Source: an uncultured virus (IMG/VR IMGVR_UViG_3300047312_000104)
Taxonomy: Duplodnaviria > Heunggongvirae > Uroviricota > Caudoviricetes
DNA length: 64,000 bases
Direction: 5' to 3' (one strand)
IMG/VR virus record: IMGVR_UViG_3300047312_000104
In this document: in pieces, positions 971-54,671 of the stretch
Layout: each line of letters opens with the position of its first letter
How positions within the stretch are numbered: the first letter of the stretch is position 1
Notes under the pieces: model-generated
The model's input: only the letters and a program-made list of their open reading frames with translations
The model's database searches: none
Told to the model about the DNA's origin: nothing
Program-made: the position numbers and the translations under genes

Positions 971-1045
971 TGGTTCACGAGCAGGGATTCAAACCCCGGT
1001 TCATCGCTTCAAAGGCGACAGTCTTATCAATTAGACGACTCGTGA
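971..1045 (-). tRNA. tRNA-Gln(TTG)
   Basis: cloverleaf, anticodon arm GTCGC-CTTTGAA-GCGAT, CCA encoded. Confidence 0.9.
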
Positions 1046-1049
1046 GTGA

Positions 1050-1126
1050 TGGTTGCCCCAGGAGGTCTCGAACCTCCATCACCGGCTTCAGAGACCGGGG
1101 TTATTACCTGGTTAAACTACAGGGCA
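1050..1126 (-). tRNA. tRNA-Gln(CTG)
   Basis: CCGGT-CTCTGAA-GCCGG, TTCGAGA T-loop, CCA. Confidence 0.92.
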
Positions 1127-1131
1127 TCGAA

Positions 1132-1208
1132 TGGTGGGGGCGGTGGGATTTGCACCCACAGGGAAGATGCGTTTAAGGCATCCACGTCTGCTGTTCCGTC
1201 ACACCCCT
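1132..1208 (-). tRNA. tRNA-Leu(TAA), short variable loop
   Basis: GATGC-CTTAAAC-GCATC, A73, CCA. Confidence 0.88.
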
Positions 1209-1211
1209 AGA

Positions 1212-1287
1212 TGGTCCCCCTCCCCGGATTTGAACCGGGATCAGACTGTTTTTGAAACAGCCGCCTCTGCCGTTGGGCTAGAAGGGG
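1212..1287 (-). tRNA. tRNA-Leu(CAA), short variable loop
   Basis: GCTGT-TTCAAAA-ACAGT, A73, CCA. Confidence 0.9.
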
Positions 1288-1288
1288 A

Positions 1289-1364
1289 TGGTACCGATCC
1301 TGGGGGTTGCACCCAGACTTTGTAGTCTCTCAAACTACTGCCTCTGCTATTGGGCTAGACCGGT
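1289..1364 (-). tRNA. tRNA-Leu(GAG), short variable loop
   Basis: GTAGT-TTGAGAG-ACTAC, A73, CCA. Confidence 0.9.
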
Positions 1365-1367
1365 AAG

Positions 1368-1443
1368 TGGTACCGAGAGAGGGATTTGCACCCACACTGA
1401 ACTGGTTCTAAGCCAGCTGCCTCTGCTGTTGGGCTATCTCGGC
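1368..1443 (-). tRNA. tRNA-Leu(TAG), short variable loop
   Basis: GCTGG-CTTAGAA-CCAGT, A73, CCA. Confidence 0.9.
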
Positions 1444-1478
1444 GTGATTACTGTATTGATGTCAAAGATCTATAAAAC

Positions 1479-1508
1479 ACAAAAACCCGACCTTTCGGCC
1501 GGGTTTTT
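1479..1508 (-). terminator. intrinsic terminator of attenuator A
   Basis: minus strand AAAAACCCGGCC-GAAA-GGTCGGGTTTTT: GC stem, GNRA loop, U-tract, just upstream of the Leu/Gln tRNAs. Confidence 0.85.
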
Positions 1509-1549
1509 GGGTTCACCTTTACGGTGTTTTCGGTCTAGGCGACCATCCC

Positions 1550-1615
1550 TTAACCACGGCCATGAGGCTGAGGTAACTGTTGGAGCAACAGGAGGAGGGA
1601 CAGGGTGGTACGCAT
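1550..1615 (-). CDS. Leu/Gln-rich leader peptide MRTTLSLLLLLQQLPQPHGRG (attenuator A)
   Basis: ATG CGT ACC ACC CTG TCC CTC CTC CTG TTG CTC CAA CAG TTA CCT CAG CCT CAT GGC CGT GGT TAA; not in ORF track (too short); last codons complementary to terminator 5' arm. Confidence 0.85.
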   Translation of the reverse strand: MRTTLSLLLLLQQLPQPHGRG

Positions 1616-1625
1616 GACGACTCTA

Positions 1626-1653
1626 AGGATAAACCATAGGGGATCTGATGCAA
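1626..1653 (-). promoter_or_regulatory. putative promoter of leader A (TTGCAT-N16-TATCCT), overlapped by inverted repeat CATAGGGG...CCCCTATG
   Basis: -10 ends 10 nt before leader ATG. Confidence 0.5.
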
Positions 1654-1663
1654 GCCCCTATGT

Positions 1664-1677
1664 GGTAGATATCTCAA
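1664..1677. repeat. 14-bp inverted repeat, partner at 7647-7660
   Basis: GGTAGATATCTCAA is the exact reverse complement of TTGAGATATCTACC. Confidence 0.85.
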
Positions 1678-1679
1678 GA

Positions 1680-1758
1680 TGGTCCAAGTGGGAGGGCTGT
1701 TCACCTCCTAGCTCCGCGTTAAAAGCACGGCCCCTCGCCTCATTCGGGTTTCACTTGG
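1680..1758 (-). tRNA. tRNA-Lys(TTT), atypical (A8, 8-nt T-loop)
   Basis: acceptor CCAAGTG/CACTTGG, CCGTG-CTTTTAA-CGCGG, CCA. Confidence 0.8.
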
Positions 1759-2147
1759 TTAAGTTTTTTCTTACGTCTTAGATCTCGTTGATATGCATTA
1801 TTAGCCTCGCGGCATACGTCGCAGCGGCAATAGTGTCGGTAACTGGATTTGGTGCCGTGTAGTCCTTTCGTAGGCGACTGCCCGAGATCAACGATGGTTT
1901 TAGCAGTATGACAAGTTTGACAGAGAATTTGACACTTAATGAGCTCAGCCTCAAACCTGGCCTTGGAAACGCTCCACTTATTGCCCAATCCAAAAAGTTT
2001 GGTACTAGGGTCAACGTGGTCCAATTGTAAGTCGCGTGTGCTACTACATTTAATGCACTTACCGCCTAGTCTAATTATGGCGTCAGCCATGCGAGCGCGA
2101 TAACGCTTCAGCATGTACGTACGCATATATTCGGCTGAATTCGACAT
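1740..2147 (-). CDS. HNH endonuclease
   Basis: CxxC...LQLDHVDP...CQILCQTCH motif; AT-richer than flanks; start taken at MSNSAEY because longer ORF overlaps tRNAs. Confidence 0.85.
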   Translation of the reverse strand: MSNSAEYMRTYMLKRYRARMADAIIRLGGKCIKCSSTRDLQLDHVDPSTKLFGLGNKWSVSKARFEAELIKCQILCQTCHTAKTIVDLGQSPTKGLHGTKSSYRHYCRCDVCREANNAYQRDLRRKKKLNQVKPE

Positions 2148-3094: not shown

Positions 3095-3165
3095 TGGTGC
3101 CCCCAGGAGGACTTTACCTCCGTCGCAGCGGTACAAAGGCTGCATCCTAGCTAGACGATAGGGGC
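3095..3165 (-). tRNA. tRNA-Thr(TGT), short D-loop
   Basis: loop TTTGTAC (C-C mismatch at base), T-loop TAAAGTC, CCA. Confidence 0.8.
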
Positions 3166-5102: not shown

Positions 5103-5451
5103 TTGGTGTCCACAATCTATGGTGTCTAAAGAGGCGCCTCGCGGCGCCGGTGATGGGAGCGGTCGCGAAGGCAGTCGCCTGATTTCCGATGTCAGGCTCA
5201 CGGAACAATATGTAGGGGATCTGGGCGGCGTCAAGCCGAGCGGCTTCATCGAGTAGCTGCTGTTCAGAAACAACACCACAGACCACTAATGCACTAGGGT
5301 CCGCGGGGGAGCATTGGGGGCCAGGTACCAGGCCTTTAGAAAGATGAATGCCAGCCTCGTGGGTGGCGTGAGCGGCTTGCACCAGCTGTTGTGCGATAGA
5401 CAGATCTTGTCTGACCAGCACGTAGACGTATAGAGTTTCCTAAGCCTTCAT
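5086..5451 (-). CDS. peptidyl-tRNA hydrolase type 2 (Pth2)-like protein with in-frame TAG at codon 4
   Basis: LYVYVLVRQDL...QLVQAAHA...FREPD...TAFATAP resembles PTH2 family; ATG AAG GCT TAG GAA ACT CTA TAC GTC TAC GTG CTG in frame. Confidence 0.8.
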
Positions 5452-6209
5452 GGTTGCATCCTGATCAGGCGGGCAGGCGCCGTCAAGTACTTACTAGTTG
5501 CCGGGCTGTGCCAGTCGCACCCGGCCAAACGCCGACGCTCTAAAGCTATGTCGTTGTCTATGTTGCGGTATGCGGGGCTGCTCAATAATGTTTCGACGAA
5601 GTTAAACAAGCCAGCCTCCCGTAGTACTGACTTATCGTATTCCGAAAACGCAATCCCAGATCCGGCCGTGTTGAAACGAGGCCTCAGGGCATGAATAAGC
5701 GCCGATTCAATCATACTCATTGTGTGTTCTTGAACTTCGAAATAGAAGACAAACTCCGGCGTAAGTCTTTGAGACTTAGTTTTGATAGCTCCACGGTGAC
5801 CTCGTTGGCGATCTCCTATACTGGTCGTTTTACCTATGTAAGTAATCTCGTTACTATTTATATGGAAATATATGCAAGCAAAAGATCTATAAAGAACATG
5901 CTCACGAACTCTGTCAGCTATGGTCTCAAGACAAGCCGGCACTGGTGGCGTGGCACCCAGATTACGAAGACACGGTATAGGCCACACGTGCCCCCAGGCT
6001 TGATATGTCTTACTCCAAATATCTAACTCTTTTTTAACGTATCGGATACGTCTAGTGCCACCCTTCGTTAATTGAATACTTATAGTAGGTAACCAGTTTT
6101 GACGAGAAAATAAAGAAAATCGCTCAATAGGCATATGTAAATAATCAGCAGCCTGCTCCGCGGTAAGAAGTTGGCCGGACTTCATTAATTTACTATACTT
6201 AGGCAACAT
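5448..6209 (-). CDS. HTH + GIY-YIG-like protein, probable homing endonuclease
   Basis: LLTAEQAADYL excisionase-type HTH; CIYF...YIGKT...R...H...E...FN; AT-rich. Confidence 0.75.
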   Translation of the reverse strand: MLPKYSKLMKSGQLLTAEQAADYLHMPIERFSLFSRQNWLPTISIQLTKGGTRRIRYVKKELDIWSKTYQAWGHVWPIPCLRNLGATPPVPACLETIADRVREHVLYRSFACIYFHINSNEITYIGKTTSIGDRQRGHRGAIKTKSQRLTPEFVFYFEVQEHTMSMIESALIHALRPRFNTAGSGIAFSEYDKSVLREAGLFNFVETLLSSPAYRNIDNDIALERRRLAGCDWHSPATSKYLTAPARLIRMQP

Positions 6210-6226
6210 TAAGCAACCCTTTGAAG

Positions 6227-6299
6227 CGTCTCCGACAGGAGTCGAACCTGCCTAGGGGAGTTTAGAATTCCCTGCCTCATGCCGATCAGCCACGGAGAC
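6227..6299 (-). tRNA. amber suppressor tRNA(CTA), CCA not encoded
   Basis: acceptor GTCTCCG/CGGAGAC-G73, GGGAA-TTCTAAA-CTCCC, T-arm GCAGG-TTCGACT-CCTGT. Confidence 0.85.
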
Positions 6300-7368: not shown

Positions 7369-7437
7369 TGGCTAGGTCGGGCGGACTTTAACCGCCATGT
7401 TCGGTTTTAGGAGAACCAAGACCCATCTGGCGACCTA
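7369..7437 (-). tRNA. tRNA-Arg(CCT), nearly D-armless
   Basis: TTGGTT-CTCCTAA-AACCGA, D region CCAGATGGGTC, G73-CCA. Confidence 0.8.
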
Positions 7438-7443
7438 TCGGGA

Positions 7444-7512
7444 TGGCACGACCGGAAGGACTTTGACCTTCGCGCCTGGGTTTAGAAGACCCTGGACCCA
7501 TCTGGCGATCGT
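7444..7512 (-). tRNA. tRNA-Arg(TCT), nearly D-armless
   Basis: GGGT-CTTCTAA-ACCC, same D region CCAGATGGGTC, G73-CCA. Confidence 0.78.
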
Positions 7513-7646: not shown

Positions 7647-7660
7647 TTGAGATATCTACC
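7647..7660. repeat. 14-bp inverted repeat, partner at 1664-1677
   Basis: TTGAGATATCTACC. Confidence 0.85.
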
Positions 7661-7683
7661 GATATAAAGTTGTCAACCGACCT

Positions 7684-7718
7684 AAACGAATGAACCCCGA
7701 GCTTTTGGCCCGGGGTTC
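7684..7718 (-). terminator. intrinsic terminator of attenuator B
   Basis: GAACCCCGGGC-CAAAA-GCTCGGGGTTC-ATTCGTTT (11-bp stem, interrupted U-tract). Confidence 0.75.
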
Positions 7719-7742
7719 CTGGAGTCAGAGTTTTGAGTCCTC

Positions 7743-7871
7743 TTATCCCTTTACCCCGGCCTGATTCTTTTTATTCCCGCGTTCCGCTGTCCTATCGCAC
7801 CCAATAGTGGTACCGTGGACCTTTGCGGGTCTCGGCCACGTGGCGGCTATAGTGGTGACGGTGGGGATCAT
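7743..7871 (-). CDS. 42-aa leader peptide MIPTVTTIAATWPRPAKVHGTTIGCDRTAERGNKKNQAGVKG (attenuator B)
   Basis: between promoter and terminator; amino-acid set matches downstream tRNAs; CCGGGGT near its end pairs with terminator 5' arm. Confidence 0.8.
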   Translation of the reverse strand: MIPTVTTIAATWPRPAKVHGTTIGCDRTAERGNKKNQAGVKG

Positions 7872-7896: not shown

Positions 7897-7925
7897 ATGG
7901 TACTAGGAGTCGGATCAAAGGTCAA
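7897..7925 (-). promoter_or_regulatory. sigma70-like promoter TTGACC-N17-TACCAT of leader B
   Basis: -35 at 7920-7925, -10 at 7897-7902. Confidence 0.65.
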
Positions 7926-11615: not shown

Positions 11616-12796
11616 TAGGCGTGGATCGTTACGCGGAACTGGTTGGTGGTCGGCGCAATCGAGAATCGGAATCGAGCCGTGTTGGTATCGAGCCGTTCTA
11701 CGTCACAGACGACCGTTTCCCATGGGCTAGAGGCGCGCGCAACCGCGATCACCACATCCCTGGTACCAAAGTTGTGAACAACATCGATTTGGGTCGAGCT
11801 ATTATCGCCAATGGAAGCCGAAAACTTCTGAACTACGATCGAGGTGTCGATCGCCACGTCGTTGGCGTTGGACAGGATACCGGTACCGGCCCCAACGTCG
11901 AGCGTGTTGCCAGTCTTGGTGAGACCATTACCGGCGATGATTGTGGCAGAGCTCGAAAACTGGCTGAAGGCCAGAGAGGTCGTGTTGAGGGTGATGGGAT
12001 CATCGGTCGTCAGAACCCAGCCGATGTCTGCGTTGTTTGTACCTTCGGTCGAGAACGCGTACAAGCCTGCCGTGACCTTTGCCGACGAATCAGCATCGGT
12101 GGTACGGGTCAGGGTGTAGGGAGTACCGCCGGTACCGACCTGGCTGACGTACCAGAGACCATTGTCTGCGCCGGCTGCACCGTCCTTGAGAAGCAGACGG
12201 TCATTCAGGACCAGGGTCACACCATCGACAGCTGCCAAGGCGCCGAAGCTGGTAGCGGTGATGACATTGGCGGTCCTGGTGTAGGCCGGGAGGGCTGCGT
12301 CGGTAGCGACGCGAACGCTAGCTTTGGTGTCCAGGCCTTGCGCGGTGGCGTCCACGTATGCCTTGGTGGCAACGTCTTGGGCGGCTGACGGATCAGCGGC
12401 TTGGAAACGGGCTGAGCCGTCGCGCAGGACGAGAGTCGAGGCCGTGTTGGACGCTGTGGCGTTAGTCAGGGTCGTCTTGTCAGTAGCAGAGAAGAAACCA
12501 TCGACCGAGGTGGTAGCCAGGGCAGGCATGGCGTGACGGTGGTCAGCCCTGGCGGCTTCGATGGCAGTTCCGACCGAGGCGGTGGACCCTACCCCTTCGG
12601 CAGTCGGGGAGGTCGAGCCAAGCCATGGGATGTCGCGCCATGCCGCGTTCGAATACTCTCGGAGGGTCTTGTCTACTGTGTTGTAGTAGATCAAACCTTC
12701 GACCGGGCCGCTTGGATCGCTAGCCAGGTTCTGGATAACGGCGTTCTGGAGCTCGTTCTTAGAAAGATCAATTGCGGTCAGGAAGGGGATAGCCAT
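11615..12796 (-). CDS. phage head/tail fibre-type structural protein
   Basis: ATKAYVD, VRVAT...VDGVTLVLNDRLLLKD...LTRTTDAD, C-terminal HNFGTRDV. Confidence 0.8.
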   Translation of the reverse strand: MAIPFLTAIDLSKNELQNAVIQNLASDPSGPVEGLIYYNTVDKTLREYSNAAWRDIPWLGSTSPTAEGVGSTASVGTAIEAARADHRHAMPALATTSVDGFFSATDKTTLTNATASNTASTLVLRDGSARFQAADPSAAQDVATKAYVDATAQGLDTKASVRVATDAALPAYTRTANVITATSFGALAAVDGVTLVLNDRLLLKDGAAGADNGLWYVSQVGTGGTPYTLTRTTDADSSAKVTAGLYAFSTEGTNNADIGWVLTTDDPITLNTTSLAFSQFSSSATIIAGNGLTKTGNTLDVGAGTGILSNANDVAIDTSIVVQKFSASIGDNSSTQIDVVHNFGTRDVVIAVARASSPWETVVCDVERLDTNTARFRFSIAPTTNQFRVTIHA

Positions 12797-16291: not shown

Positions 16292-16846
16292 TCAAGCAGG
16301 TTTACCAACTGTCGTTATGCCATGTGCGCGATTAGCGGCTTGCAGGTAAACCAATGTCGCAGCAACTCCGTCTTCTGTATCACCAAGCTGTCCTATCCCT
16401 AAGTTATGCTTATTGCACAGTAGCCCCCGTACTATGCCTGTTTTATGGTCATGATCAACGAGAAGTGGTCTATCATCACTGTGCGTAACCTCGCACCCAT
16501 TAACTGCGCATCTATAGTCCTGCCGGTCTAAAAGCTCGTTGTACTGGGTTACTGTGAGCCCGTATAGATTTTTAAGTAAATGTTCACGATGTTTTTTAAT
16601 ATCAACTAACTTTTGCTGTTTTGATCGGGCGGCCAAACGCATTTTACTGTAGCACGGGTTGCACATTTCTTTTGCATAATGTAACTTTTTCTTATTACAC
16701 GCTATACAAACACTGAATTTTTCCAGACCAGCGCGCCTAGTCGACCTTAGGTAGCGTTTGTAGCACGACGCACACCTTTCTTTAGCATAGTGTTTTCGCC
16801 GCTTACCGCAAACCTTACAAACACACAATTTTTTAATAGATGACAT
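16292..16846 (-). CDS. endonuclease VII-domain homing endonuclease
   Basis: YGLT..QY..LL..Q...CA...VDHDH.TG.VRGLLC..HN.GIG; AT-rich. Confidence 0.88.
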   Translation of the reverse strand: MSSIKKLCVCKVCGKRRKHYAKERCASCYKRYLRSTRRAGLEKFSVCIACNKKKLHYAKEMCNPCYSKMRLAARSKQQKLVDIKKHREHLLKNLYGLTVTQYNELLDRQDYRCAVNGCEVTHSDDRPLLVDHDHKTGIVRGLLCNKHNLGIGQLGDTEDGVAATLVYLQAANRAHGITTVGKPA

Positions 16847-16848
16847 AA

Positions 16849-17508
16849 TCAAGTTGGAGGAGGCATCACCCAGCAATCCCATGTGTTGGTCGCCAGGAGG
16901 GTGTAGTCAGTCGTAAGTCCGGGAACGTTAAACACTACTGTGTCGTCCGTACCACCTGACGCGATCGTGGCCGAAGCAGTCCGGTCCACGTAATCGGCAG
17001 TATCCGGAATACGCTCCAGAACGAACCACGAGTACGGGGTAACGCCCGTGAAGACCTGACCGGTGAGGGTCATCATCCCCAGGTCAGGAGTGACCACGAT
17101 GGTCTTCCGGACAGGGGCCGACCAAGGGCTCGGGTCCCACCCGAGGGTCGTGGTCGCCAAACTCTCATCCCACCGGTACGCCCCGGGTCTCGGGATGATG
17201 TAGCGCTGGTCGTGTAGGTCCTGGTCGGTGAGGTGCAGATGGACGTGGGGGAGATAGTACGTGTAACGAGGAGTGTGGTCAGGAACGACCCAGACGTTCA
17301 ACAGACCTCTGACGTCCCCAACCTTTCCAATAATATGTCCGACCCCATAGAACCCAGCCGCGGGGGTAAAGGTACTACCAGTAACGGTCCCGGCCGCAGC
17401 GTTGGTCACATACCACGTAGGGGACCCTGGGCACGGATGAACGAGCGTACAGGTCGCGGCGAGCGTTGGGGTAACTACGTATCGATCAAGATACTTAGGG
17501 GCCCCCAT
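16849..17508 (-). CDS. hypothetical virion protein
   Basis: T-rich ORF following He_PIG gene. Confidence 0.65.
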   Translation of the reverse strand: MGAPKYLDRYVVTPTLAATCTLVHPCPGSPTWYVTNAAAGTVTGSTFTPAAGFYGVGHIIGKVGDVRGLLNVWVVPDHTPRYTYYLPHVHLHLTDQDLHDQRYIIPRPGAYRWDESLATTTLGWDPSPWSAPVRKTIVVTPDLGMMTLTGQVFTGVTPYSWFVLERIPDTADYVDRTASATIASGGTDDTVVFNVPGLTTDYTLLATNTWDCWVMPPPT

Positions 17509-28564: not shown

Positions 28565-29335
28565 TCATGGGAGGTCGATCACCTGAGGGATGTAGTGTTT
28601 GCGAGCCTTATGCTCGCCCGGGTACCCGCGGGGGTTGCAGACCCCTCGGGTGGTTCCACCAAGGACTTGGTCGAACGTACTGTGGGTGTGGCCGAATAGG
28701 ACCGCCGGGATATTGGGGCGACAAAGCCAGGATGCCTGGTCGGTCGTGAAGTACGCGTTGAGCTTTGATCCGCGCCACATCTCGTCGATGGCTTCCCGGA
28801 ATGGCACAAAGTGGGTCACGATCACGGTCGGGACCTCGTCCTGGGTCAAGACCTGGAGGTAGGCCCTGTCCTTGAGGTGACGATCGATCATGACCGGCGG
28901 GGAGATGAAGGACCCCCGGAACCCGATGGAGGTAAAGTCGGAGATGCCGAGTTGGGCTGCCGCTGCCGAGATCTCCGGGGTACCGTCGAGGGAGAAGTCG
29001 GTCCAGAGCGAGACCCCGGCGATCCTGTACTTGCCGCACATGATCGAGTCACGGTTGAGGAGGTGGACGTTCGGCCACTCGGCCAAGAACTCCTCCCAAC
29101 GCTTGTACCCGAGGTTCAGGTCCATCCCGTAGAAGTCATGGTTGCCCAGGACGACGCAACAGAGGGCCCCGTTGAGGGAATTGAAGAACTCCTTGGCCCT
29201 GAAGCCGGCCGTGAGGGCGATCGAGTCGATGTCGCCGGCTACGATGACGCAGTCGACATCTTCCATGTACTTGGGCTTCATAGCCCAGCGCTGGAACTCC
29301 AGGTGAAGATCACTGGCTAGCAGCAGGCGGGTCAC
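28565..29335 (-). CDS. calcineurin-like metallophosphoesterase
   Basis: SDLHLE, AGDI, GNHD, THFVP, GHTH, NPRGY motifs. Confidence 0.92.
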   Translation of the reverse strand: MTRLLLASDLHLEFQRWAMKPKYMEDVDCVIVAGDIDSIALTAGFRAKEFFNSLNGALCCVVLGNHDFYGMDLNLGYKRWEEFLAEWPNVHLLNRDSIMCGKYRIAGVSLWTDFSLDGTPEISAAAAQLGISDFTSIGFRGSFISPPVMIDRHLKDRAYLQVLTQDEVPTVIVTHFVPFREAIDEMWRGSKLNAYFTTDQASWLCRPNIPAVLFGHTHSTFDQVLGGTTRGVCNPRGYPGEHKARKHYIPQVIDLP

Positions 29336-29864
29336 GGTGTCGCTCCAGGTATTCTGCGGCTAGGCGTAGCTGCTCGGGGGAGTCATTAAACTGACCTAAG
29401 CCTTTATTACAAGGAGAACATAGAATCCCGCGTACCATGCCAGACACATGACAATGATCTACATTCCAATCCGTACGACCGGAGTCGTCTGTGCCGCATA
29501 TTGCGCATCGACCACCTTGTTTATCTAAAAGCGATTTGTATTGTTCAAGCGTAAGGTCGTAGTCACGCATCAATTGCTCACCGCGACGCGCTTCTTTCCC
29601 TTTTGCTTTGCGCTGTGCGGCACGCCTCGCGTTGATCTCGTCCTTATGTCTTGCGTATCTAATAAGCATCCGCGCTGCGTTTCTCGCCCGCGCACGCTCT
29701 TTCGCTTCCTCGGTTTGAGCTGCTCGCCTGACCCGTGCCTTAGCCGCCGCTTCTTCTTTATGGGCTGCATACCACGCGCGCGATTTAGCTGCTGCTTCGC
29801 CCATGTGAGACTTCCTGTAAGCCGCGTCGGTTACCTTTTTCTTTTCTAAATCCTTGTACGCCAT
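29310..29864 (-). CDS. endonuclease VII-domain homing endonuclease
   Basis: Q.G.CAICG...VDHCH.SG.VRGILC..CN.GLG.F.D. Confidence 0.9.
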   Translation of the reverse strand: MAYKDLEKKKVTDAAYRKSHMGEAAAKSRAWYAAHKEEAAAKARVRRAAQTEEAKERARARNAARMLIRYARHKDEINARRAAQRKAKGKEARRGEQLMRDYDLTLEQYKSLLDKQGGRCAICGTDDSGRTDWNVDHCHVSGMVRGILCSPCNKGLGQFNDSPEQLRLAAEYLERHRDPPAASQ

Positions 29865-42945: not shown

Positions 42946-43551
42946 TCATGACCGCCCCAGGTATTGTATGGCTGCTAACAAGCGCTGTGGTGAGTCATTA
43001 AACTGCCCTAATCCAGCATTGCAACGGTTACAAAGCAGTCCACGGACTTTACCTGTTGTATGGCAATGATCGACATTCCACCGTCCATGCCGGCCAGGTG
43101 GTTTGTCCGTGCCACATATAGCACACAGACCGTTTTGGCTTGCCAACATAGAATCGAAATCAGCGATAGACAGGTTGTATTTACGGCGTAGCCGTGCTAC
43201 ACGTTGTTCCTCCTTGCGATCCCGATCGTATGAATCTAACGCCACCTTATTGGCCTTACGATAGGCAGCAGCGTAAGAGGCTGCCTTTTCTTTGTGAGCC
43301 TCATAGTAGGCCGCTTTGGCTGCGACCATCTCTTTTTTATGCGTCTTATAGTAAGTGGAGCTAGCAGCAACAATAGCCTCCTTATTAGCCTTATAATAAT
43401 CGGCGTTATAGGCTGCCCTCTCCTCCTTATGAGACTCATAATAGACGGCGGCTCTGACGCTCGCCTCGTTCTTATAAGTCTTACCGCCAGCTAATGTTTT
43501 CCCAGTAGTCATACGTATCACGGGATTATGTTGATGGGGTCCTCGGGTCAA
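42946..43551 (-). CDS. endonuclease VII-domain homing endonuclease
   Basis: YY..HKE repeats then CAICG...VDHCHTTGKVRGLLC..CN.GLG. Confidence 0.9.
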   Translation of the reverse strand: MTRGPHQHNPVIRMTTGKTLAGGKTYKNEASVRAAVYYESHKEERAAYNADYYKANKEAIVAASSTYYKTHKKEMVAAKAAYYEAHKEKAASYAAAYRKANKVALDSYDRDRKEEQRVARLRRKYNLSIADFDSMLASQNGLCAICGTDKPPGRHGRWNVDHCHTTGKVRGLLCNRCNAGLGQFNDSPQRLLAAIQYLGRS

Positions 43552-53484: not shown

Positions 53485-54671
53485 CGAATCTCCCGTTACA
53501 GTCGTGGACTAAGCTGGGATTGTAGCAGCCGTTGTTGTTGTCGGTCGAACATCGCCTGACTCCAACGCTTCACAAGGGTCTCAGGAGTATCCCCTCGGCG
53601 CAGCTCTACTGCGGTTCCGTTGAACTGAGCCCACACGGGCCAGCGATAATCGGATGATTCAGCAGATTTGATGGCGCGCTTTAGGAACGTTACTATGTAT
53701 TCGCCCGGCTCTGCGTTCACCATCTCCGGGACGGTCCCGCCTTCTTTCATCCGAACCTCTTGAGGAGCACGGGTTTGATGGCCTTAAGGTTTTGCAGAAC
53801 TGCTTCCCGGTAGTCTCGCTCCCGCACCGCGATTCCACTTCGATACCGGTATATGTTGCGGCCACGCTCGCCCCAGATTCGATCGACCAGATCTGGTCTG
53901 AGATCCGGGTAGACGGCACGCCGGGTGCTTGGCTTACCTAGCTCGCCCCGTAACCAAATCAGGTGTGATCTAACCTCGGCCCAATCCACATCCTCTAGGC
54001 CATTCGGGACCGCGCGGTCCTCCCTGGCAGCCAGCTCTATTGCCTTGAGGGTCCCCCTGATGGTCTTGTGGCGCTTCAAGAGCCGCTCTGCCCACCATAT
54101 TCCGGTAGAGCACCCTTGACGTTCTTCTAGGAACTTGAGGAACCGCTCTTCCCCCAAGGCCCTCATCGGAGCCCCAGGGCTTGGCGTTCGTCAGGGGTCA
54201 GCTTCGACAAAGCCCTATTCCGGATCATCTTCTGCTCAAGGTGGACCCGGCGACGATCTTCCCTGACCCTGCGGTCCTGGGCATCTTTCGCCTTATGGGC
54301 TTCCCACCAGTTCCGAAGGTGCGCGCTGACCATGGTGGGGATCCGGCCGGTGGGTTCTATTACGGTCATGGCCTCGCACAGCATGTTGGCCAGATCGTCG
54401 TTTCGACGTTCGAGCCGCTCGATCTCGTCAGGGGTGCCTTCGTCGTGTGAGCTACAGTCGGGTGGATAGTCGCTGCATGGCATGGATTATTCCTTCTTGG
54501 TGGTTGTCTATGAATCGCTTGAGCACTTCAGCGCACATATCAGCGTCATCCCTTAGCTCCTTGGCCAGGTCGGGAAATGCGAGCGCGTTGTGCTTGGCCG
54601 TACATAAGTCGCGTGCCATACGGGCCACCACGGCATTGTACTCTATCTCGTTGAGGATCTCGGAGATCATA

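Follow-up and report, generated by a model that had tools for sequence, protein, structure and literature searches.

A putative ribosome-mediated transcription attenuator ahead of the leucine and glutamine tRNA genes of an uncultured phage

What decides whether transcription enters a group of tRNA genes that serve just two amino acids? This question is raised by a locus of an uncultured soil phage (IMG/VR record IMGVR_UViG_3300047312_000104), in which an intrinsic terminator precedes four leucine (Leu) and two glutamine (Gln) tRNA genes. The window analysed, which is the whole stretch of 64,000 nucleotides (nt), is a 64-kb part of a 159-kb contig with its genes on the minus strand. It contains no other Leu/Gln tRNA cluster, and 107 nt upstream of this one, on the same strand, lies a short open reading frame (ORF) with a cluster of Leu and Gln codons. 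The terminator stands between the two, and an antiterminator whose formation depends on ribosome position has been found in silico. The element is likely to be a ribosome-mediated leader-peptide transcription attenuator gating the four Leu and two Gln tRNA genes, by means of which the phage would probably make more of these tRNAs when ribosomes read Leu and Gln codons slowly. The components of this element, named here module A, are the following:

1550-1615, minus strand: leader ORF A, 21 codons plus TAA, MRTTLSLLLLLQQLPQPHGRG
1568-1603, minus strand: regulatory tract, codons 5-16, in which 7 of the 12 codons are for Leu and 3 for Gln
971-1443, minus strand: Leu/Gln tRNA cluster detected with ARAGORN, Leu(tag), Leu(gag), Leu(caa), Leu(taa), Gln(ctg) and Gln(ttg)
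1480-1509, minus strand: intrinsic terminator A, 13-bp stem, GAAA loop, -20.9 kcal/mol
1471-1479, minus strand: T-run TGTTTTATA, directly 3' of the terminator A hairpin
1545-1561, minus strand: A copy of a conserved 17-mer, GGCCGTGGTTAAGGGAT, of which 1561-1552 is the upstream arm of the antiterminator
1602-1609, minus strand: 5' strand of a protector helix, ACCACCCU, codons 3-5, paired with 1550-1542 in the minimum free energy (MFE) fold of the untranslated leader
1542-1550, minus strand: 3' strand of the protector helix, AGGGAUGGU, whose first base is the last base of the stop codon

The composition of the leader at 1615-1550 is the one described in an earlier note on this DNA, with the Leu codons CTG (two), CTC (three), TTG and TTA and the Gln codons CAA and CAG (two), and the six downstream tRNA genes (ARAGORN, 1443-971, same strand) carry the anticodons that were named there. 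Codons 5-14 consist of nine Leu/Gln codons and one serine (Ser) codon. Among 889 small ORFs of 12-45 codons in the six frames, leader A has the highest Leu plus Gln fraction (10/21), followed by a 13-codon ORF with 6/13; at least ten Leu/Gln codons are present in 7 of the 889, and the other six of these are 36-45 codons long. A scan of 127,942 ten-codon windows in six frames revealed nine Leu/Gln codons out of ten at the leader A locus only, with one further locus, at 53540, reaching eight out of ten. In the codon usage of the phage (9,326 codons from 31 long ORFs), Leu represents 7.8% and Gln 3.1%, together 10.9%. The claim that the leader holds a cognate codon for each of the six tRNAs has to be qualified: CTA is missing from leader A, so that the Leu(tag) tRNA is served only via U:G wobble on CTG. 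With 7 Leu and 3 Gln codons given, the probability of a match to the six tRNAs is about 0.12 by a strict and about 0.45 by a loose count, so that the match adds little statistically. The signal is therefore the enrichment and its position, and not a one-to-one match.

A Leu-rich ORF of this kind might also be expressed for its own product. It has been considered highly improbable that ORF A is a functional small hydrophobic peptide (21 amino acids, aa, with a Leu-rich core) whose gene is merely ended by the terminator. Its translation does contain a hydrophobic LSLLLLL core, but 21 residues are too few for a membrane span with flanks, and a tail rich in Gln and Pro is atypical. No protein was recorded at this place by the gene caller used for the protein collection, and neither the 61-aa (1519-1704, minus strand) and 58-aa (1605-1781, plus strand) ORFs across this stretch nor the spurious ORFs over ORF B, the second leader described below, have entries in that collection. 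A small peptide would also leave unexplained both the ribosome-position switch and the second module.

The first tRNA gene (1443) begins 36 nt past the terminator A hairpin, a gap that leaves no room for a promoter between them. The antiterminator pairing put forward in the earlier note, GGCCGUGGUU (1561-1552) with AACCCGGCC (1505-1497), was recovered with 9 bp, one bulged U and -13.7 kcal/mol, and its 5' arm at 1505-1497 is common to terminator A and the antiterminator. The stop codon of leader A, TAA (1552-1550), lies within the 17-mer GGCCGTGGTTAAGGGAT. The protector helix ACCACCCU/AGGGAUGGU is an element additional to those noticed before, and it is predicted to make the untranslated leader A terminate, as in classical attenuators. 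A T-box riboswitch or another Rfam cis-regulatory leader family was rejected as an identity for this region, with no covariance-model match above threshold: the Rfam search (E up to 10, 1440-1800) gave only sub-threshold hits driven by the terminator, the best of them at 24.3 bits versus a cut-off of 55.

For the folding of module A, the transcript was ended at the terminator loop (1640-1494) and a footprint of 28 nt, standing for the ribosome, was masked for each A-site codon; the readout was the probability that the terminator 5' arm (1506-1497) pairs with upstream sequence. This masked equilibrium folding revealed that the fold depends on ribosome position. The value is 0.26 in the absence of a ribosome, when the protector helix wins, and 0.66 with the A site at codon 1 (ATG). 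It reaches 0.86-0.88 at codons 2-14, where the antiterminator forms, and is 0.68 at codon 15. At codons 16-22 (22 being the stop) it falls to 0.17-0.40, in agreement with the claim that a ribosome at the stop covers the antiterminator and gives termination. The companion claim, that a ribosome stalled in the Leu/Gln tract gives read-through, was reproduced in silico for all seven Leu codons and for Gln codons 12 and 13, and not for Gln codon 16. The switch contrast of 0.62 was matched by none of 300 dinucleotide shuffles of the upstream 131 nt and by one of 300 natural segments, each 131 nt long, that were taken from the window and put in the place of the leader sequence. It was stable at 25 and 30 °C and, when 5' end, 3' end and footprint were varied together, in most of the 18 settings. 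At the sequence level, the computable predictions of the proposed model were all supported in the form given here.

A second, paralogous module with the same architecture is located at the start of the tRNA array. Its parts are listed below:

7671-7871, minus strand: module B, ahead of the other 22 tRNA genes, the first of which opens the array
7897-7925, minus strand: promoter-like TTGACC, 17-nt spacer and TACCAT found in a promoter scan (9/12), directly 3' of a gene for a 197-aa protein
7743-7871, minus strand: leader ORF B, 42 codons, ATG at 7871 and TAA at 7745-7743, MIPTVTTIAATWPRPAKVHGTTIGCDRTAERGNKKNQAGVKG
7745-7761, minus strand: B copy of the 17-mer, GGCCGGGGTAAAGGGAT, with the upstream arm at 7761-7753 and a duplex of -16.3 kcal/mol
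7692-7718, minus strand: terminator B, 11 bp, homologous to the A terminator and followed by TTGACA at 7676-7671

Exact matches to the 17-mer pattern GGCCGNGGTNAAGGGAT are found only at 1561-1545 and 7761-7745, and three other sites match with 3 mismatches each. The alignment of A and B from the 17-mer through the terminator to TTGACA has 61 invariant columns out of 111, and since the sequence 5' of the 17-mer is unrelated, the homology starts exactly at the upstream arm of the antiterminator. The three arms of A are GGCCG(U)GGUU (upstream), AACCCGGCC (5') and GGUCGGGUU (3'), and those of B are GGCCGGGGU, ACCCC(G)GGCC and GCUCGGGGU, respectively. The bulged U of A is replaced in B by a paired G, alongside an extra C in the terminator 5' arm and an extra G in the 3' arm, and the terminator pair next to the loop is C-G in A and G-C in B. 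These changes fit the three-arm model and, as a single comparison of two sequences, are suggestive only. ORF B crosses the 17-mer in a frame other than that of ORF A and ends two codons past the upstream arm.

When the same masking was applied to module B, the 5' arm was paired upstream with a probability of 0.87 without ribosome and of 0.69-0.89 for A-site positions in codons 1-34, and the value fell to 0.04 over codons 35-43. The contrast of 0.83 is to be compared with 150 shuffles and 150 natural segments, not one of which gave a value of at least 0.6. Because it has no protector, module B is predicted to read through unless its leader is translated to the end.

The 22 tRNA genes between modules B and A represent 14 amino-acid types (N R E V M A D P K G I T W H). 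In leader B, 40 of the 42 residues belong to these types, all 14 are represented, and Leu, Ser, phenylalanine (Phe) and tyrosine (Tyr), for which there is no tRNA in its block, are absent. A score of 40/42 was reached by 37 of 39,230 stop-free 42-codon windows (7 loci), and all 14 types occur together in leader B only; these statistics were defined after the ORF had been seen and depend on a by-eye reading of the alanine (Ala) tRNA gene.

The behaviour of module B bears on a further explanation, in which the switch is real and does not read the supply of Leu and Gln tRNAs. It would report instead general coupling of transcription and translation, an RNA-binding factor of phage or host, or temperature, or would be an element for tRNA-precursor processing or stability, with the codon content being secondary. 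Since read-through is predicted whenever the ribosome misses the last nine codons, whatever the codon at which it stops, module B looks like a general translation sensor, and the conservation of the 17-mer, which the two ORFs cross in different frames, points the same way. Such a switch would leave unexplained why a leader that is half Leu and Gln stands before Leu and Gln tRNA genes, and why leader B avoids Leu, Ser, Phe and Tyr. This explanation has been judged improbable.

A plain terminator has to be weighed as well, and this requires the signals upstream and downstream of leader A:

1635-1662, minus strand: upstream hairpin CATAGGGG(12 nt)CCCCTATG, from the sequence and the MFE fold, whose loop has a weak -35-like TTGCAT
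1626-1653, minus strand: weak promoter-like pair identified by eye, TTGCAT (1653-1648), 16-nt spacer and TATCCT (1631-1626)
1460-1465, minus strand: TTGACA downstream of the A terminator, with its counterpart at 7676-7671 after the B terminator

The pair TTGCAT-16-TATCCT could start an RNA 2-4 nt 5' of the leader A ATG. The region before this ATG (CCTTAGAG / TATCCTTAGAG, 7 nt, ATG) resembles those of real phage genes, such as the genes at 12796 (CCTTAAGAGAG), 8522 (CCCCTAAGGA) and about 52870, and weak Shine-Dalgarno matches are found throughout the phage. TTGACA was not supported as the -35 of a promoter, with no consistent -10 element at the 9 minus-strand TTGACA sites inspected; the A-side copy cannot be the -35 of a normal promoter because it lies just 16 nt from the tRNA gene.

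In the plain-terminator explanation, the hairpin would end the transcript of an HNH homing-endonuclease gene (2159-1740) or insulate tRNA sub-clusters, the ORF would be a chance frame in a pyrimidine-rich spacer, and the tRNA genes would be transcribed by leaky read-through or from an unrecognised promoter. The hairpin does lie 230 nt past the HNH stop codon, and similar strong terminators follow ordinary phage genes, for example at 8624-8594 after the tail-fibre gene. The weak Shine-Dalgarno match of leader A, the absence of a promoter call here in the scan, the presence of TTGACA after both terminators and the origin of half of the Leu/Gln codons in a palindromic hairpin are also what a plain terminator would allow. 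Several independent coincidences would be required, however. The densest Leu/Gln run of all six frames would fall by accident exactly at leader A, a ribosome-position switch found in just 0-1 of 300 controls would have arisen here, and a diverged paralog would have repeated both architecture and switch with an ORF fitted to its own tRNA set. The 16 nt from TTGACA to the tRNA gene, furthermore, give no space for a -10 element and a start site. A plain terminator is thus held to be unlikely, and the leader-peptide attenuator is preferred.

Several observations count against this attenuator and temper the preference for it. The leader A tract includes a perfect hairpin, CTGTTG-CTC-CAACAG (1591-1577), which is present in the computed fold and from which five of the ten Leu/Gln codons come; because CAG and CAA read as CTG and TTG on the complementary strand, a constraint on RNA structure could create part of the codon pattern. 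Very many windows were scanned, and rare coincidences are expected somewhere among them. The Shine-Dalgarno match of leader A (TAGAG) is weak, and its promoter-like pair scores 8/12, under the scan threshold. TTGACA is kept after both terminators and is unexplained, and the B copy could be part of a promoter from which transcription would bypass the terminator. In the folding, the A value went down to 0.17-0.44 at codon 11 with a 12/10 footprint and to 0.48-0.69 at codons 5-9 with the 5' end at 1700 and the 3' end at 1497, termination is predicted to persist when the ribosome stalls at Gln codon 16, and equilibrium folding with a fixed mask is a crude proxy for co-transcriptional kinetics. The codon-level match of leader B is modest, with 31/42 under strict wobble, reached by 1,145 of the 39,230 windows (2.9%, p = 0.029), and 38/42 under permissive pairing, reached by 235 of them (0.6%, p = 0.006). 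Tandem short Leu tRNAs were also inspected at 8 unrelated phage loci in IMG/VR (L110-L117), and a Leu-rich leader was found at none of them. Finally, the conservation seen in these sequences rests on one paralog, module B, because the searches yielded no ortholog DNA.

These searches gave protein relatives of the 280-aa product of a neighbouring gene, P0002 (64% identity) and P0003 (55%), encoded in contigs of 207,841 and 134,497 bp. In the phage collection, megablast and blastn found a single match, the tRNA-Leu of a Bacillus phage (77.6%), tblastn with P0002 and with a 730-aa protein found none, and tblastn with a phosphoesterase found only matches of about 30% in giant phages of proteobacteria. 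Viral contigs searched with the 202-aa, 280-aa (plus the alignment of its relatives) and 393-aa proteins gave distant relatives or none. In the genome and metagenome contig searches zinc-ribbon matches swamped the result and no ortholog DNA was obtained, and a pattern search with the 17-mer plus the terminator gave 0 matches.

The attenuator proposed for module A would operate as follows. RNA entering from upstream would carry the 21-codon ORF; leader A would be transcribed and translated, and we infer that the two processes are coupled and that the response is to tRNA supply. In the untranslated RNA, ACCACCCU would pair with AGGGAUGGU, the 5' arm would stay free, the 1509-1480 hairpin would form and transcription would stop 36 nt 5' of the first tRNA gene. 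A fast ribosome on the last codons or the stop would mask GGCCGUGGUU, and the terminator would form again. A ribosome waiting in the tract for charged Leu or Gln tRNA would melt the protector and leave GGCCGUGGUU free to capture AACCCGGCC, no terminator would form, and RNA polymerase would continue into the tRNA genes. In this way the tRNAs for Leu and Gln codons would have their supply under negative feedback. Module B may gate the other 22 tRNA genes likewise, with a leader that samples their 14 amino-acid types.

A more ambitious reading joins both modules in a two-tier, codon-resolved audit of tRNA supply. Module B would open the whole array if any of the 14 types were slow and module A would meter Leu and Gln by its three-state switch, so that the phage would detect when host tRNAs are lost, whether by shut-off or by defence nucleases that cut tRNA, and would transcribe the exact replacement tRNAs; the modules would then represent one case of a widespread class of tRNA-supply sensors in large phages. 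This extension is offered tentatively, as a doubtful possibility.

Leader-peptide attenuation is the textbook mechanism of amino-acid operons. Module A resembles the layout of the trp leader, with a protector, an antiterminator and a terminator and with the stop codon about 75 nt before the release site. In Escherichia coli pheST (pheM leader), a component of the translation apparatus is under leader-peptide attenuation for the same amino acid; what is controlled there is a host gene, which encodes a synthetase and not a tRNA. T-box riboswitches share with the phage module a terminator/antiterminator control responsive to tRNA charging, but they bind uncharged tRNA directly and without translation.

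The enterobacterial attenuators of this type (see also PMC1183508) include leu (leuL), his, trp, pheA and the multivalent thr (Thr/Ile) and ilvGMEDA (Leu/Val/Ile) leaders. Module A has in common with them a run of regulatory codons within a short ORF, a stop codon followed at about 40 nt by an intrinsic terminator, and mutually exclusive protector, antiterminator and terminator pairings set, in the folding, by ribosome position. As in the thr and ilv leaders, two amino acids would be sensed by one leader. The phage element differs from them in that it would gate the tRNA genes that decode its regulatory codons and not biosynthetic enzymes, in the absence of sequence similarity and of any matched Rfam leader family, and in module B, which has no protector and samples 14 amino-acid types. 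A literature search at the level of listings and abstracts found no paper on leader-peptide attenuation of tRNA genes, and the novelty here is most likely the action of a known attenuation mechanism on a new class of target genes, tRNA genes, in a phage. If the proposed mechanism is true, phages regulate tRNA genes by direct feedback from decoding speed, which would account for the matching of large tRNA arrays to demand, connect phage tRNAs in a testable way with the depletion of host tRNAs or with defences that target tRNA, and offer compact codon-specific sensors for synthetic biology.

Some repeated sequences occur around the modules. A 17-nt repeat, CCTAnnnTTTATCCTTA, is present at 892-908 and 1624-1640 (minus strand) and brackets the segment formed by the leader and the Leu/Gln tRNA genes, with one copy ahead of leader A and the other ahead of the next ORF (83 aa, 919-668); the 10-mer TTTATCCTTA at 1633-1624 has its second copy at 901-892, ahead of this same ORF. 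The repeat is either a promoter-like element or a trace of insertion of the segment. The 11-mer GAGATATCTAC, with the palindrome AGATATCT, is found once near each module in opposite orientation (1665-1675, minus strand; 7649-7659, plus strand), a pair that may be due to chance because at least two such matches occurred in 18 of 100 shuffles.

The 28 tRNA genes of the window span 7597-971. ARAGORN counted 19 with default and 25 with relaxed settings, and Rfam counted 23; the lower threshold of ARAGORN added Thr(tgt) at about 3165-3095 and Arg(tct) at about 7512-7444. An Rfam tRNA at 6575-6504 (minus strand, 50.3 bits) is without a default ARAGORN call and reads by eye as Ala(UGC) with a G3:U70 pair. 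The Rfam Thr(UGU) at 3095-3165 (minus strand) is likewise without a default call and has a C:C mismatch that closes the anticodon stem. Tandem 69-nt tRNAs, Arg(tct) and Arg(cct), with reduced D-arms and about 72% identity (repeat family D8), lie at 7369-7512 (minus strand), and Arg(tct), the first of the pair, escapes default thresholds. The four Leu tRNAs (1132-1443, minus strand) are all short, 76-77 nt, and have no long variable arm of the bacterial tRNA-Leu type. Three of the four carry the D-arm motif TAGCCCAAYRGCAGAGGC, tandem copies of which are found in 8 IMG/VR phage contigs, and the Bacillus-phage match mentioned above corresponds to one Leu tRNA that is 77.6% identical to the tRNA-Leu of Bacillus phage Deep Blue.

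The window encodes tail and head-decoration proteins, several HNH and endonuclease VII proteins and phosphoesterases, and four small neighbouring ORFs had no match in Pfam. Identical pieces of the window were found in soil and rhizosphere DNA runs from three studies (X1-X3), and a fourth DNA run gave only a short tRNA-like piece with 8 differences from the window, whereas no RNA run was among those listed; the contigs of sequencing runs that match the window leave 1526-1715 uncovered. Genes of the homing-endonuclease type are located at five places, two of them within the tRNA array:

1740-2159, 5448-6209, 16292-16882, 29310-29864 and 42946-43551, minus strand: homing-endonuclease-type genes, one HNH, one GIY-YIG-like and three endonuclease VII-like

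A degenerate cloverleaf at 1684-1758 (minus strand), called by neither ARAGORN nor Rfam, overlaps the 3' end of the HNH gene and has a CUUUUAA anticodon loop (Lys-UUU-like), and its 3' end and trailer are similar to the tRNA-Pro ones (repeat family D11). The homing endonuclease may have disrupted a tRNA gene here. Within the array, a tRNA with a CTA anticodon at 6226-6299 (minus strand), labelled Pyl by ARAGORN, is of the amber-suppressor type, a possible sign that this phage reads through or recodes TAG.

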